From Cetorhinus maximus (lineage: Eukaryota): a DNA stretch of 64,000 nucleotides. The DNA is taken from assembly GCF_964194155.1 (NCBI RefSeq), contig NC_135888.1, positions 37,200,001 through 37,264,000 of the forward strand. Direction: 5' to 3'. Below the pieces are notes generated by a model. That model was not told the origin of the DNA and did not search any database. It was given only the letters and a program-made list of their open reading frames with translations. Shown piece by piece: positions 11,366 through 53,905 of this stretch. Position 1 is the stretch's first letter. Every line of letters begins with the position of its first letter. Both the position numbers and the translations under genes were made by a program.

Positions 11366-12449
11366 TTAATGAGAGTCCCAGGATCCAGCATTACTAACAT
11401 GATGCAGAGTTTTACAGCAGCTAGAGTTTAGTTATGGTGCTGGAATCAGCTTCAGCACCTCTGCTCTAGAGAGGGGGGGATAATAAGAGCCAAGGTTTGT
11501 GCTTCTGATCATTATCTGGTGACCTGTGCTGGGAAATGCAACTTTGATAAAAGATCAAGTCAGGACTGGGCTCAGATGTGGTGCCTGTTGCACCATGATG
11601 CTCACTGGTTAACCTTACATGTGAATAGCCACCATGTTACTGGGAAGTTGCTAATAGCCATGGAAACATATCCCAGTTCAAAATAACGCATTCAGAAGAG
11701 AAAAAGTTAGAAATGTGGGAAATGAAGTTGTAATTTGTGCTTTGAGGTAAACTGAATTTTATTTCTTCAAAAAATATTGTTTTGTTGCTCAGGACAAAAC
11801 TGTTCACTTCTGGTCCTTATGATTTTTGATCAACATTTGTGTCAACTTTTCCCATGCAGTTTTTCTATGCCAACTCTCACCTGCACAGTACTGTCCTTTA
11901 CCATCAGTTGGCGCTATATTATCTTTGACTCACAAATCTCCCATGTTTCCTGGGGAAAAAAAAAATGTCTGTCCTATCCTTTTTTTAAAATGTCTGCTTT
12001 CATCCCATCATAACCTCTGTCTAGAAATTAATTGCAGCGTTGTTGGATATGACACTAGAATTCATCAATTAACCTCAGCAATAGGAAGTTCTAAACTATT
12101 CGTTCCTACAGTAACTTCCACAAATATAAACCTCTTCTTCACAAATTGCAACCCATTCCTTTTACCTATTTAACAGATTATGACATGAGAGATCAAAAAT
12201 GATTGTAAGCAGATGCTTCTACTGTTACAATCACAGGCATACACAAAACAAGGGATAAATGTAATTGTTCAAACATCTGCGTCCAGATAGTGAAATCCTT
12301 TATATGCAAATGCTTCCAGTCTTAAAAGAAATCTAGTTAGCTACATTTACAAAAGAAGCTAAACCATCAGAGCCTATATAAAGAAAACTTGAGATTATCC
12401 TTACAAAATTTGACACCATCAGATGATTCAAGGACTAACTTTTTAAAAA

Positions 12450-13605
12450 ATTAATTCATGGGACGTGGGCTTCGCTGGCTGGGTCAAGATTTATTGCCTA
12501 TCCCTAGTTGCCCTTTAGAAGGTGGCGGTGAGCTGTTTTCTTGAGCCACCGCAGTCCGTGTAGTGTAGGCACACCCACAGTGCTGTTAGGGAGGGTGTTC
12601 CAGGATTTTGACCCAGAGACAGTGAAAGAACGGCGATATATTTCCAAGCCAGGGTGGTGAGTGACTTAGAGGGGAAATTCCAGGTGGTGTTCCTATCTAT
12701 CTGCTGCCCTTGTCTTTCTAGATGGTAATGATCGTGGGTTTGGAAGGTGCTGTCTAAGGAGCCTTGGTGAATTCCTGCAATGCATCTTGTAGATGGTACA
12801 CACTGCTGCTACTGTGCGTCAGTGGTAAAGGGAGTGAATGTTTGTGGATGTGATGTCAACCAACTGGGCTGCTTTGTCCTGGGTGAAGTCAAGTTTCTTG
12901 AGTGTTTTGGGAGCTGCACTCATCCAGGCAATTGGGGAGTATTCCATCACACTCCTGACTTGTGCATCGTAGATGGTGGACAGGCTTTGGGAAGTCAGGA
13001 GCTAAGTTACTCATCGCAGGATCCCTAGCCTCTGACCTGTACTTGTAGCTACAGTATTTATATGGCTAGTCCAGTTCAGTTTTTGGTCAATGGTAACCCC
13101 CAGGATGTTGATGGTGGGGGATTCAGTGATGGTAATGTAATTGAACATCAAGGGACGATGGTTAGATTCTCCCTTGTTGGAGATGGTCATTGCCTGGCAC
13201 TTGTGTGGCATGAATGTTACTTGCTACCTGTCAGCCCCGGCCTGGGTATTGTCCATTTGGACATGGACTGCTTCAGTATCTGAGGAGTCACGAATGCCGC
13301 TGAACATTATGCAATCATCAGCGAACATCCCCACTTCTGATCTTATGATGGAAGGAAGGTCATTGAAGAAGCAGCTGAAGATGGTTGGGCCAAGGACACT
13401 ACCCTGAAGAACTCCTGCAGTGATGTCCTGGAGCTGAGATGTCTGACCTCCAACAACTGCAACCATCTTCCTTTATGCTAGATATGATTCCAACCAGTGG
13501 AGAGTTTTCCCCTGATTCCCATTGACTCCAGTTTTGTTAGGGCTCCTTGATGCCATACTCAGTCAAATGCGGCCTTGATGTCAAGGGCAGTCACTCTCAC
13601 CTCAT
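12450..13605 (-). mobile_element. APE-RT LINE (CR1/Jockey group; same family as 30857-33575), 5'-truncated
   Basis: GVLQGSVLGPTIFSCFFNDLPSIIRSEVGMFADDC; 3' tail matches 33400-33570. Confidence 0.9.
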
Positions 13606-14894: not shown

Positions 14895-16030
14895 GTGCTG
14901 CTGGGGCCTCAAGTATTTACAATATATATCAATGACTTAGATAAAGGGACCAACTGCATGGTTGCTAAATTTGCTGATGACACAAAGATAGGTAGGAGAG
15001 TAATTTGAGAAGAGGACATAAGGAGTCTGCAGAGGGAAATAGTTAAGTTCAGTGAGTGGACAGAAATTTGGAAGACGGAGTATAATGTGGAAAATGTGAA
15101 GGTGTCCACTTCAGCAGGAATATTAGAAGAGCAGCATATTATTTAAATGGAGAGCGATTTTTGAATTCTGCGGTACAAAGGGATCTGGGCATCCTGGTGC
15201 ATGAATCACAAAAAAATAGTGTGCAGGTACAAGTAATTAGGAAAGCAAATGGAATGTTGTCATTTATTGCAAGGGGAATGGAATATAAAAGTAGGAAAGT
15301 TCTGCTACAGTTGTACAGGGCATTGGTGAGACCACATCTGGAGTACTGTGCACAGCTTTGGTCTCCTTATTTAATAAAGGATATAAATGCATGGGAAGCA
15401 GTACATAGAAGGTTCATTCAACTGATTCCTGGGATGAAAGGTTGTCTTAAAGGGAAAGACTGGACAGGTTGAGTGTGTATCCATTAGAGTTTAGTAGAAT
15501 ACAAACTTATCACATTGAAATATATAAGATCCTGAGGGGACTTGACAGGGTGGATGCTGAAAGGACATTTCCCCTAGTGGGACAGAATAGAACAAGGGGA
15601 CACAATTTAAAAATAAGGGGTCTCCTATTTAAGACAAAGATGAGAAGGATTCATTTCTCTCAGAGCATTATTAGTCTGTGGAATTCTCTTCCCCAGAGAG
15701 CAGTGGAGGCAGGGTCATTGAATATTTTTAAGACTGAGCTAGATAGATTCTTGACTGCCAAGGGAGTCTAAGCGTGGGATTTTCTGCACCCGCCCGCCTC
15801 CGCGATCTTCCGGCCCCGCTGCAAGTTAATGGACTTCTGGCTGGGGCACCACCTCGCCCGTGGCGGGTCCCGCCCGTAATGGTGCTAGAAAATACCAGCC
15901 TAAGGGTATAGGGGGTAGACAGAAAAATAGAAGCCACAATCAGGTCAGCCATGATCTTATCAAATGACAGAGCAGGCGCAAGGGGCCAAATGCCTACTCC
16001 TGCTCTTAATTTGAAAGTTCCTATATTCAT
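14895..16030 (+). mobile_element. CR1 LINE, 5'-truncated (RT C-terminal half plus 3' UTR)
   Basis: GSVLLGPQVFTIYINDLD..KFADDTK; RDLGILVH..LYRALVRPHLEYCAQLWSP; TRGHNLKI..SLWNSLP. Confidence 0.92.
15772..15900. mobile_element. Short Harbinger-type MITE inside the CR1
   Basis: TAA on both sides (15769-71, 15901-03); imperfect TIRs GCGTGGGATTTTCT / AGAAAATACCAGCC; CR1 sequence resumes on both flanks. Confidence 0.75.
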
Positions 16031-28652: not shown

Positions 28653-28914
28653 TGCTCTTTTACAAGTCCATTCCTTATCCACTTCATGGTCCACAGGTGA
28701 GTATTGCTCTGACAGTTCCATAGACCTTAACTAGCCTTGTTAAACAGGGTTACAAGTCCATTTTTTCAGTCTTGCTTTAAAACAGGGATTTCAAAGTCTT
28801 TGCTGAAAGTACGGATCCTTCAACGTATCTATATATAATCAGCAACAGTACTGATATAGAGCATAAATCATCAGTAACATGGATGGATTGTAAAGACGAT
28901 TGGTCCTTTAGAAA

Positions 28915-29152
28915 CCCTACCATCTGGAAGTTCCCCTCCAAGCCTCTTGGAAATATATCGCCGTTCCTTTACTGTCGCTGGCTCAAAATCCTGGAACTCC
29001 CTCCCTAACAGCACTGTGGGTGTACCTACATGACATGAAGTATAGCGGTTTAATAAGGCAGCTCACCACCACCTTCTCAAGGGGAATTAGGGATGGGCAA
29101 TAAATGCTGGCCCAGCCAGCGATGCTCACATCCCATGAATGAATAAAAAAAG
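28915..29152 (+). mobile_element. 3' end fragment of the APE-RT LINE family
   Basis: Aligns with 33330-33575 and ends CCCATGAATGAATAAAAAAA. Confidence 0.85.
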
Positions 29153-30856
29153 CCAGTCTTGTTCGGCATTAGTAATAATGCCAAAACGCTCTGGAATTGT
29201 TTTAAATCTTTCTTTCCACTTACCGAATTGAAAATAAACGTGCCGCAGGCAAATTCTTCTCATTATAAAGCAATTGCATCATGCTCACATTATCCTTACA
29301 CGCCCAGCTCACCTGGTTCCTGTGTTAAAATCGGGATCAATAGTTGACCACCCTCACAGTAATCTGCAGTGAGCAAAGAAAACAACAGAGTTACGACAAT
29401 TTTTACAGCAATAACAGCAACAAAAAGGGACAGCCTAGCAGAGTCGTTTGGTTTGAGTTTATATTAATGAAAGGAAAGCCTCCTCCAGTTTAAATTACTA
29501 CAAATGGGCTTGAAAAGTAAGTCAAGAGCTTCCTTACATTTTTGTGACTCCAAATTATTTCAAAACATACCATTGTTTTAAGGATATGTACTTAAAGCAA
29601 CACTGGTTTCACTTTAATGGCTATTTAAGAATTATGGCATTACTTTTCTCAACAAGTTAAGACTGATGAGATCTATTTTATTTTCGTTGCATTTACCACA
29701 GTTATAATTTAAGCCTTGCAACAGCAGCTTAGACAATCATTGTAGATTTTACATTCCTCATCTGAAGTGATCAACATTTGGGTTAATTTGCTTTAACACT
29801 GATGTTCTTGACATACCTAGATATGTAGCTTTCAGAATCTAAGAGCAATTAACACAAAGCTATTATAGCTATAGAGATTAAAGGAATTGAGCAAAATTGA
29901 GGAAATAAATGCCATGAAGAAAAGGACATTGGGAGTGAGGTCAGGACTTCAGGAAACACTAAATCAAAAATGTATTGTATCTCTAACTAACATTCAGGCA
30001 GGCAGCATTTATAAATAGTTGCAGTGTAAATATTTCAACTGTGCATTCTGTCAGGTACATACGTTCGCTCATGGGTGAGCCTCCATTGTGAATGCTTAAT
30101 GACCCTCTACATCATTATACAGGCGGTAGCAAAACAGCCTGATTTATTTTAATATCACCCTCCGTTAACTCCTGCCGCAATACATAAAGAATACATGAAG
30201 GCCGTGATTACCTAAGCAGAGAAATCTGGAAAAAAAACATTGGCGCAGTCCTCAGCTATGACTCATTACCAAGGCTTCCTTCAAGTCCCTTGTTAGCTCG
30301 CTTTCAGTAAATTACAAATGCTTCAGCTATTAATTGTCACTGTTTAACGCAGCTGCTATATTAGAACAAGAAGTGACAACAACAAGAAGACAGGCCCTGA
30401 AGGGTCAGAGACATTGAAACCGATTACACATTACCACAGCTTTAAGAATTTGGTAATTGTATTCTGGACCAGTTCAAATTCCCAGATGGCTCTTTGATAG
30501 GACGGGCTCAGTGCAAAGTGATCATTTGCCATTATAATGTTTCAAGAATGGTGCTGGTAGAATAAGCGGCAATGCTTTATTTAAAGAGTACATGAGCAGA
30601 CAGTGAAAGAGAATGCAATTACAGTGCAGCAAGCAATCAAACATACAGCCATTGGAATGGAAGCAAAGCCCAGCAGCAGAATATTTTTCATATTACTTAC
30701 TTTAGTCTCCTCTTGCATTCAGTCCCCTGCAGGGAGCCAAGTGTCACATCAACACAGATGAGGTAAATGAGCCCCCGTGGTGACCAGATGAGTGAGGCAA
30801 AGCTAAGGAGCAATCACAGTGAGTCAACAAAAATAACCAAAACAAATTAAAGACGA

Positions 30857-30948
30857 TGGCATAGTGGTATTGTTGCTGGACTAGTAATCCAGAGACTAGT
30901 AATCCAGTAGACCCAGGGTAATGCTCTGGGGACCTGAGTTTGAATCCC
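30857..30948 (+). promoter_or_regulatory. Pol III type-2 internal promoter (A box and B box) at the LINE 5' end
   Basis: A box TGGCATAGTGG 30857-67; B box GAGTTTGAATCCC 30936-48; a ~15-bp tandem duplication GACTAGTAATCCAG lies between them. Confidence 0.6.
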
Positions 30949-33575
30949 GCCATGGTAGATGGTGGAATTTGAATTCAATAAAAATCTGGAATTAAAAGTC
31001 TAATGATGGCCATGGGACCACTGTTGTAAAAATCCATCTGGTTCACTAATGTCCCTTTAGGGAAGGAAATCTGCCATCCTTAAATGGTCTGGCCTACAAT
31101 GTGGTTGACTCTTAAATGGCCCCAATTGTAACAAACTGCTACAAAGTCATAAAAAAGGAATGAAACCGGATGGACCACCCGGCATCGACCTAGGCACCGG
31201 AAACAACAACGGCAATTTCAGCCCTGTCGACCCTGCAAAGTCCTCCTTACTAACATCTGAGGGTTCATGTCAAAATTGGGAGAGCTGTTTCACAGACTAG
31301 TCAAGCAACAGCCTGACATAGTCATAGTCACAGCATCATACCTTACAGATAATATCCCAGACACCACCATCACCATCCCAGGGTATGCCCTGTCCCACTG
31401 GCATGACAGATCCAGCAGAGGTGGTTGGTATACAGTCAGGAGGGAGTTGCCCTTGGAGTCCTCAGCATCGACTCTGGAGCTCATGAAGTCTCATGGCATT
31501 AGGTCAAACATGGGCAAGGAAACCTCCTGCTGATTACCATGTACTGCCCTCCCTCAGCTGAGGAATCAGTGCTCCTCCATGCTGAACATCACTTGGAGGA
31601 AGCACTGAGGATGGAAAGCGTGCAGAATGTACTCTAGGTGGGAGGCTTCAATGTCCATCAGCAAGAGTGGCTCGGTAGCACCACCACTAACCGATCTGGC
31701 TGAGTCCTAAAGGACATGTCTGCTAGACTGGGTCTTCAGCAGGTGGTGAGGGAACCAACAAGAGGGAAAAACATACTTGACCTCACCCTCATCAACCTGC
31801 CTGCCGTAGATGCATCTGTCCATGACAGTATCGGTGGAAGTAACCACCGCGTAGTCGTTGTGGAGGCGAAATCCCGCCTTCACATTGAGGATATCCTCCA
31901 TTGTGTTGTGTGGCACAACCACCGTACTAAATGGGATAGATTTTGAACAGATCTAGCAACTCAAGACTGGGCATCCATGAGGCGCTGTGGGCCATCAGCA
32001 GCAGCAGAATTGTACTCGAACACAATCTGTAACCTCATGGCCCAGCATATCCCCAACTCGACCATTACCATCTAGCCAGGGGATCACCCCTGGTTCAATG
32101 GAGAATGCAGGAGGGCATGCCAGGAGCAGCACAGGGCATACCTAAAAATGAATTGTCAACTTGGTGAAGCTATAACACAGGACTACTTATGTGCCAAATA
32201 TCATAAGCAGTAAGTGATAAACAGAGCTAAACAATCCCACAACCAATGGATCAGATCTAAGCTCTGCAGCCCTGCCACATCCAGTCATGAATGATGGTGG
32301 ACAATTAAACATCTCACTAGAGGAGGAGGGTCCACAAATATCCCCACCCTCAATGATGGGGGAGCCCATTACATCAGGGCAAAAGATAAGGCTGAAGCAT
32401 TTGTGACAACCTCCGGCCAGAAGTGCCAGATGGATGATCCATCTCGGCCTCCTCTGGAGGTCTCCAGCATCACAGATGGCAGTCTTCAGCCAATTCGATT
32501 CAATCTACATGATATCAAGAAACAACTGAAGGCACTGGATAGTGGTTGTTGGAGGTCAGTCATCTCAGCTCCAGGACATCACTGCAGGAGTTCCTCAGGG
32601 TAGTGCCCTCACCACAACCATCTTCAGCTGCTTCAACAATGACCTTCCCTCCATCATAAGGTCAGAAGTGGGGATGTTCGCTGATGATTGCACAATGTTC
32701 AGCACCATTCGCGACTCCACAGATACTGAAGCAGTCAATGTCCAAATGCAGCAAGACCTGGACAATATCCAGGCTTGGGCTAGCAAGTGGCAAGTAACAT
32801 TCACGCCACACAAGTGTCAGGCAATGACCATCTCCAACAAGAAAGAATCCAACCATCGCCCCTTGATGTTCAATGGCATTACCATCACTGAATCCCCCAC
32901 TGTCAACATCCTGGAGGTTGCCATTGACCAAAAACTGAACTGAACGATCCATATAAATATTATGGCTACATGAGCAGGTCAGAGGCCAGGAATCGTGCAA
33001 TGAGTAACTCACCTCCTGACTCCTCAAAGCCTGTCCACCATCTACAAGGCACAAGTCAGGAGCGTGATGGAGTACTCCCTACTTGCCTGGATGAGTGCAG
33101 CTCCCAAAACACTCAAGAAGCTTGACACCATACAGGACAATGCAGCCCGCTTGATTGGTGCCACATCCACAAATATTCACTCCCTCCACCACCGACGCAC
33201 AATAGCAGCAGTGTGTACCACCTACAAGGTGCACTGCAGGAATTCATCAAGGCTCCTTCAACAGCAACTTCCAAACCCACGACCATTACCATCTAGAAGG
33301 ACAAGGGCAGCAGATAGATGGGAACACCACCACCTGGAAGTTCCCCTCCAAGTCACTCACCATCCTGACTTGGAAATATATCGTCGTTCCTTCACTGTCG
33401 CTGGGTCAAAATCCTGGAACTCCCTTCCTAAAAGCATTATGTGTGTACCTACACCACATGGACTGCAGCGGTTCAAGAAGGCAGCTCACCACTACCTCCT
33501 CAAGGGCAACTAGGGATGGGCAATAAATGTAGGCCCAGCCAGTGAAGCTCACATCCCATGAATGAATTAAAAAAA
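30857..33575 (+). mobile_element. Single-ORF APE-RT LINE with tRNA/SINE-like 5' head and an internal deletion of the N-terminal RT
   Basis: Head with A and B boxes; APE motifs (LTNI*G..QPDIVIVT, FNVH, PTRGKNILDL..SNH); PW motif; junction ..LKALD|VVVGGQSS at ~32540; GVPQGS..MFADD; tail ATGAATGAATTAAAAAAA. Confidence 0.9.
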
Positions 33576-40662: not shown

Positions 40663-41045
40663 CATTCAATGAGTTAGTTGTGTTAAAGTAAAGGACAATG
40701 TAATGTCATATAAAGAACTTCATTGTTCATTTGCTCATATTGTACACAGCAATCTCTAAAGTAGACTTTAATTGGCGCAGATACTATTTAGCTTTTGATT
40801 GGCATTTTCAATGATGAAATCTCTATTAAAGGATAGAAGTACTTTTGTAACCCAAGAAAATCGGTTGATAGTTTGCTCTGTCACTGTTGCTTCATCTAAT
40901 TCTTTTATCCACCTGCATTTTGATAAAAGATGATTTCAGTTTCCATTGATGAGCTGGTCTTCACTCAAAAATGTGGGTTTGAACACAGTAGAGATCGGTA
41001 ATAAAAAACCCTTGTCAAATTATTACATTGAAAGGCAGATCGTAA

Positions 41046-42530
41046 ACATAGGAACATAAGACTTAGAAGCCAGAGTAGGCCATTCAGCCCTTTGAGTCTG
41101 TTCCATCGTTCAATAAGATCATGGCTGATCTGGTTGTGGGTCAAAACTCCACTATGCCGTCTGCCACCATAACCCTTGACTCTCTTGTCTATCAAAAATC
41201 TAACTCTGCCTTGGATAAATTCAATGACCCAGCCTCCACTGCTTTCTGGGGAAGAGAATTCCACATATTAATGGCTCTTTGAGAGAAAAAAAAATCCTCA
41301 TCTCCATCTTAAACTGTAGACATCATTCTTAAACTGTATCCTTTGGTTCTAGTCTCTCCCACAAGTGGAAACATCCTCGTGATATCTACCCAATCAAATC
41401 CTCTCAGGATCTTATGTTTCAATAAGATCACCTCTCTTTCTTCTAAACTCCAATGGATATAGGCCCAAGCTGTTCAACTTTTCTTCATAAGATAAGCCCT
41501 CATCCCAGGAATGAGTTGAGTGAACCTTCTCTGTACTGCTTCTAACACTATTATATTTTTTTCAAATAAAGAGACTAAAACTGTACACAATATTCCAGAT
41601 GTGGTCTTGCCAAGGCCCTGTACAGCTGCAGTAAAACTTCCCTATTTTTATATTTCATTCCCCTTGTAATAAATGTCACATTCCATTTGCCTTTCTAATC
41701 ACTTGCTGTACCTCCATACTAACTTTTTGTGATTCATGTATCAGGACACCCAGATCCCTCTGAACCACCAAGTTTTGCTATCTCTTTCAATGTACTGCTT
41801 TTCTATTCTTCCTTCCAAAGTGGACAAGTTCACATTTACCCACATTATACTCCATCTGCCAATTTTTTGCCCATTCACTTAACTTATCAATTTCCCTTTC
41901 CAGGCTCTCTACCTCCTCTGACAGCTTACTTTCCTACTTATCTTGGTGTCATCAGTAAATTTAGCTACCGTACATTTAGTCCCTTCATCCAAATCATTGA
42001 CGTAGATTGTAAATAGTTGAAGCCCCAGATACTGGTCCCTGTGGCACTCCTGTAGTTACAGTTTGCCAAACCAAAATGTGTCTCATTTATCCCTATTCTC
42101 TGCTTCCTGTTGGCTAACCAATCCTTTGTTCATGCTAATATGTTACTTCCTGCACCATCTACTCTTACTTTGCATAGTAACCTTTGATGTGGCACCTTAT
42201 CAAATGCCTTCTGGTAATCCAAGAACACCACATCTACAAGTTCCCCTTTATCCATCTTGCTTGTTACTTCCTCAAAAAAACTCTACTAAATTAGCTAACC
42301 ATGATTTCCCTTTCACAAAGCCATGCCTTATCAGATTCTAAGTATCCTGCTGTAACCTCCTTAATAATGCATTCTAGCAGTTTCTCTGTGACAGATGTTA
42401 GGCTAATTGGCCTGCAGTTTCTGGCTTTCTGTCTCCCTCCTTTCTTGAATAAAGGTGTTAAATGAATTATTTTCCAATCCGTTGGGACCCTTCCAGAATC
42501 TAAGGAATTTCAGAAGATTATAACCAATGC
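41046..42530 (-). mobile_element. CR1 LINE, 5'-truncated
   Basis: Reverse complement aligns with 14895-16030 and extends further upstream (GVPQGPV, KFTDDTK). Confidence 0.9.
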
Positions 42531-44570: not shown

Positions 44571-44868
44571 ATGGTGAGAGCAGACAATGTGGCGAGAGCG
44601 GACAATGTGGCGAGAGCAGACAATATGGCGGGAGCAGACAATATGGCGAGGGGGACAATATGGCGAGAGCAGACATGGCGAGAGCAGACAATGTGGCGAG
44701 AGAAACAATGTGGCGAGAGCAGACAATATGGCGAGAGCAGACAATATGGCAAGAGCAGACAATATGACAAGGGGTACAATATGGCGAGAGCAGACAATAT
44801 GCCGAGGGGGACAATATGGCGAGAGCAGATAATATGGCAAGAGTGGACAATATGGCGAGAAGGACAAC
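44571..44868 (+). repeat. 18-bp tandem repeat (GGCGAGAGCAGACAATAT, ~16-17 copies) in the Harbinger subterminal region
   Basis: Direct reading; gives the ARADNM / WREQTI / GESRQY periodic ORFs. Confidence 0.95.
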
Positions 44869-53469: not shown

Positions 53470-53905
53470 GATTCAGGAGAGAGCTCGGGGGATTCAGGAG
53501 AGGGAAGGTGGGATTCGGGGGGGATGGTGGGGGGGGTGGGGTGGTGGGGGGCTACTCAGACCAGACTGCGAGGATGACTCAGAGGAGGGCTGGGGTGAGG
53601 GGGAGTGGATCATTAGAGGGCCGGTGAGGGTCTTGGGAGAGGGCCAGGGATGGGGGCTCAGAAGAGGGGCGAGGGGGGTGTGGCTGCGAGACTCAGGAGA
53701 GGGCCTGGGCAATTCAGGAGAGGGTCGGGGGTTTCAGGAGAGGGCCAGAGAGGGGAGCAGACTCAGGAGATGGCCGCAGTGAGGGTTTCAGGAGAGGGCC
53801 AGGGGGTTTCAGGAGAGGGCCCGGGGATTCAGGAGAGGGCCAGGAAGGGGGGTGGACTCAGGAGAAGGCTGCGGAGAGGGTTTCAGGAGAGGGCTCGGGG
53901 TGTGA
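53470..53905 (+). repeat. G-rich degenerate minisatellite (core TCAGGAGAGGGC, ~10 copies) with G-runs
   Basis: The core recurs with spacing of about 19-22 bp; G-tract cluster at 53516-53551. Confidence 0.8.

Follow-up and report, generated by a model that had tools for sequence, protein, structure and literature searches.

The 64,000-nt stretch of the Cetorhinus maximus genome analysed here (the window) carries at 30855-33575, on the plus strand, a LINE that opens with a tRNA-derived head, raising the question of whether RNA polymerase III (Pol III) might transcribe a protein-coding retroposon. A sequence-only reading of the window had proposed such an element from A and B boxes and a SINE-like body that pass into an AP endonuclease (APE) frame without an intervening tail or target-site duplication (TSD), an arrangement that we confirmed, and from a near absence of T4 runs on the sense strand.

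The copy in the window consists of head, body, APE-reverse transcriptase (RT) coding part, 3′ UTR and a terminal A7, all on the plus strand. The tRNA-derived head (Thr, anticodon AGT; 30855-30955) starts 8 nt short of the family 5′ end and contains an A box (30857-30867), an anticodon-type arm with a perfect 5-bp stem and AGT in the loop (30876-30892), and a B box (30937-30947) that has decayed by two changes relative to the GGTTCGAATCC of the family; a short duplication peculiar to this copy and an extra hairpin are also present. The conserved non-coding body, or 5′ UTR (30956-31131), contains an AATAAA, is common to the partner SINE described below, and ends in this copy with the stop codon that opens the main frame. 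Downstream are an Arg/Lys-rich N-terminal ORF extension (31132-31250) that has no AUG in its own frame and is overlapped by a uORF whose AUG lies in another frame, and a broken AP endonuclease domain (31251-31860), identified by its motifs and by Pfam Exo_endo_phos_2 / Exo_endo_phos matches on the sister copy L034. A deletion junction at 32544-32545 precedes the remaining RT (GVPQG, FADD) and the C-terminal region to the stop codon (32545-33513; Pfam RVT_1 on sister copies). The 3′ UTR (33514-33575), also common to the partner SINE, contains AATAAA at 33522-33527, a stem-loop, ATGAATGAAT and a short A tail.

This copy is dead and defective. The deletion removed 518 nt (consensus nt 1728-2245), the N-terminal half of the RT, and the remainder contains 12 in-frame stops and frameshifts and diverges by 6.9% from the consensus, so that the single APE-RT ORF earlier ascribed to it does not exist; a single ORF is found only at the level of the family consensus. 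No clear TSD was seen at this copy. Its sense strand has 13 A4+ runs and, as had been reported, exactly one T4 (31941-31944), attributed to CpG decay of TTTCGA after insertion; 97 of 141 copies have C at that site, in agreement with this origin.

Two further copies of the family, both 5′-truncated, are present in the window, one at 12449-13605 on the minus strand with T6A5 at its 3′ end, and a short one at 28913-29152 on the plus strand. The claim that these partial copies are free of T4 is correct for the interior of both, but a T6 lies at the 3′ terminus of the minus-strand copy, just beyond the range quoted for it. The CR1 element at 14895-16030 has the two T5 runs noted previously and one T4 besides. 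It is one of two 5′-truncated canonical CR1 copies in the window (the other at 41045-42028; 76% alike), whose family served as our Pol II control. Self-comparison of the window revealed tandem arrays at 44571-44867 and 53615-53900, with periods of ~53 and ~104 nt.

The family numbers thousands of copies: an exact 27-nt match to the body-ORF junction occurs 2159 times in the 4-Gb host genome (control, 0). A consensus built from 22 long copies and the window copy is 3281 nt long and comprises a tRNA-Thr-like head, a 200-nt body, one APE-RT frame and an A-tail. The frame has 969 codons, interrupted only at one CpG site, and is preceded by a 307-nt leader; Pfam found Exo_endo_phos and RVT_1 on family copies. 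All 30 loci selected with an endonuclease-protein query, which carried 8 residues from the body end, extend into the head or body, and 17 of them start no more than 16 nt from the terminus. Among the pooled non-redundant copies with an ORF start, 124 of 128 reach the head or body (72 within 12 nt), with no alternative 5′ end in this set, and the flanks upstream of family copies are mutually unrelated. The suggested check of whether the head is the consensus 5′ end was thus run, and the head holds that position in the host genome and in five shark and ray species.

The subfamilies form an age gradient, and copies of young and of intermediate type carry the head. Among old-type copies it is reached by only 4 of 35, and the oldest that were recovered are 5′-truncated; because old-type copies are mostly truncated in this way, the age of the head in the host genome is drawn mainly from the cross-species consensuses. 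Among 39 two-ended copies, a script found direct repeats of 4-9 nt or none, indistinguishable from chance. Fragments of the family are present in predicted proteins of several sharks and one ray; five predicted shark proteins (P0055, P0059, P0077, P0083, P0099) are host-gene isoforms with LINE RT fragments, reflecting either exonisation or an annotation artefact. Among 4 + 4 runs compared, the family also occurs in assembled contigs from three organisms and from RNA-type runs, contigs that carry no information on transcript start, strand or level. One run labelled as a coral metatranscriptome (X19) contained thousands of family contigs, probably from contamination or environmental shark or ray material.

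The A and B boxes are near-invariant across copies, CpG decay aside. ARAGORN called a tRNA-Thr(AGT) in the head of sister copy L094, one of the ten family loci submitted to it; that head also had the tRNA model as its top Rfam match, at 18.1 bits, which is under the gathering threshold. The same head begins a 360-nt partner SINE in which LINE head and body are fused to the last codons and 3′ UTR (L094:1499-1860); the SINE junction has 2633 exact genome matches (control, 0), and the distribution of starts at the 5′ G-run is alike in LINE and SINE heads. Selection by the head yielded 29 other loci, of which 14 continue into the LINE (3 of them internally deleted), 14 are the short SINE and 1 is a longer variant; a longer form of the SINE junction was seen in L015 and L073. 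The SINE is likely an internal-deletion derivative of the LINE that is mobilised by it. We compared the head and body with known SINE modules. The published SacSINE1 head (nt 2-78, supplement of PMC5786205) differs from the family head, and its motif occurred in 5 of 389 loci, in other repeats and not in the Zenon element; a SacSINE1-type head constitutes a separate repeat of the host genome (L239, L252, L259, L286, L296). By eye the body has no likeness to the Deu domain of EbuSINE2, the one example compared from PMC5786205.

The family is a match to Zenon-1, an elasmobranch LINE described in 2026 (Stuart et al., PMC13343379). As presented in that paper, elasmobranch Zenon LINEs lack ORF1 and are A-tailed, the poly-A tail being unique to Zenon within the CR1 group, and the published set consists of CarCar_Zenon-1, ScyCan_Zenon-1, RhiTyp_Zenon-1, HypSab_Zenon-1 and SquAca_Zenon-1, -2 and -3. 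Our family likewise has a single APE+RT ORF by Pfam, with no ORF1, and a tail of A6-9, often T(n)A(n). Over the first 400 nt, the 5′ end of CarCar_Zenon-1 is by eye nearly identical to our consensus (total lengths 3288 and 3281 nt), and the same tRNA-like head begins 7 of 7 published elasmobranch consensuses, which span 5 species including a ray and a squalomorph. It begins none of the three coelacanth and hagfish Zenon consensuses, which have T4+ runs within their first 400 nt. The absence of ORF1 noted earlier loses its value as evidence, since all Zenon LINEs described in PMC13343379 lack ORF1. The terms "tRNA" and "polymerase III" do not occur in the main text of that paper, nor "tRNA" in its searchable supplement, and to that extent the head, the purge of T-runs and the loss of the AUG go unremarked there.

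In a FastTree phylogeny of 106 rows that included no labelled Zenon, the RT fell, with weak support, outside the shark-CR1 group and among single-ORF invertebrate and crustacean elements. Its identity is 43.5% to a crab protein versus 35.7% to shark CR1, and the closest full-length relatives of the family are invertebrate (36-39% identical). A search for homologues of the APE part among 4750 longer-protein candidates, a weak search, returned no match. Two Zenon-like invertebrate relatives (L152:400-530 and L154:180-215) share a 40-nt 5′ UTR motif, present twice in L152, which is superficially hammerhead-like; it had no match in Rfam. The motif is also visible in the published 5′ end of EptBur_Zenon-2.

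Substitutions shared by many copies (changes of the source lineage, CpG sites excluded) were compared with private ones in 117 head-bearing copies with the body end and at least 800 nt of ORF. Shared substitutions (45 synonymous, 35 non-synonymous) gave a dN/dS of 0.23 and private ones 1.18 (p = 5e-12), and between the old and young subfamilies 33 synonymous and 12 non-synonymous differences gave 0.11. A shared-substitution dN/dS of ~0.2 implies that head-bearing sources encoded functional protein. The proposed autonomy is thereby supported for these sources, the window copy itself being defective.

Pol III terminates at T4 or longer. The consensus contains no T4 and six TTT. As the sequence-only reading had cautioned, few T4 runs are expected by chance, about 2 in the consensus under three codon controls, and their absence alone is not significant (P 0.09-0.14); the avoidance becomes clear beyond chance in the TTT runs. 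The ORF has 4 TTT runs versus 12.5 ± 2.5 in codon-preserving controls, and words with T at four of five positions occur once versus 6.5 expected (P = 0.013). Of the synonymous T/C third positions, 35 are such that T would give rise to TTT, and only 1 of these has T, versus 84 of the 253 without an adjacent T (odds ratio 0.09, p = 4.7e-5). A shark CR1 control consensus (24 copies, left from 29 loci once 5 tandem duplicates were removed; 494 codons of the C-terminal half) contains 8 T4, and 22 of its 38 sites of the same synonymous class have T. All 67 metagenome relatives with an open frame of 400+ codons (from a set of 80) contain T4, with odds ratios of 0.38-4.31 versus 0.09 in the family, these two controls being one shark CR1 consensus and mostly T-richer invertebrate ORFs.

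Post-insertion changes to T show a similar frequency whether or not they create TTT (0.0227 and 0.0208), so that a mutation bias of the DNA is not the explanation; shared changes create TTT in 0 of 230 cases versus 27 of 2284, in the expected direction but without significance of their own. There is no avoidance of A- or G-runs and a mild one of C-runs (odds ratio 0.39, p = 0.002). Polyadenylation signals, 5′ splice sites and pyrimidine tracts occur at expected levels, with an AATAAA retained at +115, and their lack of depletion speaks against Pol II processing being responsible. T-runs are thus selectively avoided in this family, and the suggested comparison with codon-based controls also came out in favour of the proposal. 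The avoidance reaches TTT, which is under the textbook terminator length, so that another process sensitive to U-rich RNA could be the cause.

The AUG of the ORF has been lost as well. The first 284 codons of the consensus frame contain no Met. Nine codons upstream there is an AUG in the same frame, but stops block it, TAG and/or TAA in 95 of 117 copies and TAG in 6 of the 7 published elasmobranch consensuses. In all 10 relatives with an intact N-terminus, the endonuclease motif is preceded by a Met. A uORF of 35 codons (in the consensus) begins at a conserved out-of-frame AUG and overlaps the basic N-terminal extension; frameshifting from this uORF was considered and rejected, as no canonical slippery heptamer is conserved. 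Folding of the leader gave nothing significant for an IRES-like structure (z −0.3 to −1.5), and Rfam returned no relevant ribozyme or IRES match in family heads or in 9 relatives. AUG-less ORF2s are known in Pol II LINEs too.

At the 3′ end, AATAAA sits 40-45 nt before the A tail. About one third of the tails are T(4-9)A(3-7) rather than TA(7-9), with a total of ~10, for example at 12440-12455 of the window on the minus strand. Exact tail matches continue in TTTT in 3584 cases versus AAA in 7934, T expansion is seen at 8 of 18 3′ ends versus 2 of 183 internal T-A sites, and T substitutes for A at constant total length. The 3′ T-run could be a remnant of a terminator or the product of quasi-palindrome mutation; T(n)A(n) is favoured genome-wide (117 versus 8 of 2271 A-runs), and this bias together with the constant length is compatible with a mutational origin.

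Gain of the head, purge of T-runs and loss of the AUG thus fall together, in the elasmobranch lineage, on a Zenon that is in other respects ordinary and whose ORF is under selection. We consider it probable, from these sequence features, that elasmobranch Zenon is an autonomous single-ORF LINE with a tRNA-derived 5′ head whose 3.2-kb RNA is a Pol III product, its translation needing neither cap nor AUG. The fuller reading, which we hold slightly better than even, is that of an "autonomous SINE": 3.2 kb read end to end by Pol III from a captured tRNA promoter, an ORF recoded against terminators, cap- and AUG-free translation, and persistence in sharks and rays. An ancestral Zenon would have acquired the tRNA head in an elasmobranch ancestor. 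TFIIIC would bind the A and B boxes and Pol III would initiate at the 5′ G-run, which lies ~10 nt ahead of the A box; source lineages would have been selected to drop terminator-like T tracts, allowing Pol III to cross 3.2 kb. The RNA would then be adenylated at its 3′ end, its translation would dispense with AUG or cap, and target-primed reverse transcription would insert it; the 360-nt SINE would arise by internal deletion of the LINE. Retrotransposition of Pol III transcripts without ORF1, as described in PMC2666806, fits this scheme and is no evidence for it, since Zenons all lack ORF1. A statement in PMC10886601 that Pol III is held to be too poorly processive for autonomous elements counts against it.

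Alternatively, the head may be, or lie beside, a Pol II promoter, and U-runs may be avoided via U-rich RNA-binding, decay or nuclear retention factors. LINEs recruit new 5′ ends, the AATAAA 40-45 nt before the A tail suits Pol II 3′ processing, and the extension of the avoidance to TTT, shorter than a terminator, is as this explanation would have it. It also accords with the normal dependence of LINEs on Pol II, as stated in PMC10886601. The same-genome Pol II CR1 and the 67 relatives, however, show no such avoidance, the A and B boxes hardly vary other than by CpG decay, the AATAAA at +115 is retained, and the in-frame AUG has been lost rather than kept; we regard a Pol II head as unlikely. 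A divided life cycle would keep Pol III for the template RNA, hence the purge, and would draw the protein, partly in trans, from capped host transcripts, Pol II read-through or spliced ones, that bring an AUG. The missing AUG would then call for no new translation mechanism, many copies do lie within host transcripts, with fragments apparently exonised in predicted shark and ray proteins, and the abundance of internally deleted copies and of the SINE shows efficient trans mobilisation. Strong purifying selection in head-bearing source lineages is, however, easier to explain by action in cis, and no conserved splice acceptor is evident, which makes such a division improbable in our estimate.

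It is more improbable still that the head is a passive passenger on an element whose sense strand is poor in T through a replication bias, either of the RT or of transcription-coupled mutation. The sense strand has 20% T, and TT, TTA and TAT are all somewhat low, as such a bias would predict, but the effect is context-specific once composition and codon usage are fixed, third-position T is freely used without an adjacent T, and the head is intact in five species.

The sequence of Zenon is already published; its mode of expression is possibly of a categorically new kind, and a search of the open-access literature found no description of a Pol III-transcribed autonomous LINE. If the Pol III reading is correct, it would break the division between Pol II LINEs and Pol III SINEs as well as the restriction of Pol III to short non-coding RNA. 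Elasmobranch Zenon would be a natural, long-evolved Pol III protein-coding unit that reveals which T-words Pol III cannot cross over kilobases, and it would imply a cap- and AUG-independent route of translation in a vertebrate. It would also provide a direct path to the birth of a SINE, by deletion of a Pol III LINE.

Among known systems, R2 is likewise a non-LTR element with a single ORF; its RNA is made by an enzyme other than Pol II and is translated without a cap, in many cases also without an AUG. It is, however, a Pol I co-transcript freed by a ribozyme, with no promoter of its own, and belongs to another clade with another endonuclease. Elasmobranch Zenon as published has the same single APE-RT ORF, no ORF1 and an A tail, and CarCar_Zenon-1 is by eye nearly identical to our family over the first 400 nt. 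The family resembles tRNA-derived SINEs (SINE2; shark SacSINE1, HE1) in its tRNA-derived head with A and B boxes, its body, its LINE-type tail and its freedom from T4. SINE2 elements are, however, short, non-coding and non-autonomous, a description that suits only the 360-nt derivative and not the 3.28-kb LINE, which carries a 2.9-kb ORF under purifying selection. The partner SINE, composed of LINE 5′ and 3′ ends, is like the bipartite non-autonomous LINEs and the SINEs with bodies from LINE 5′ UTRs in Kojima 2018 (PMC5786205). In the model given there, a tRNA head joins a deleted, non-coding derivative, whereas here the autonomous element itself bears the head.
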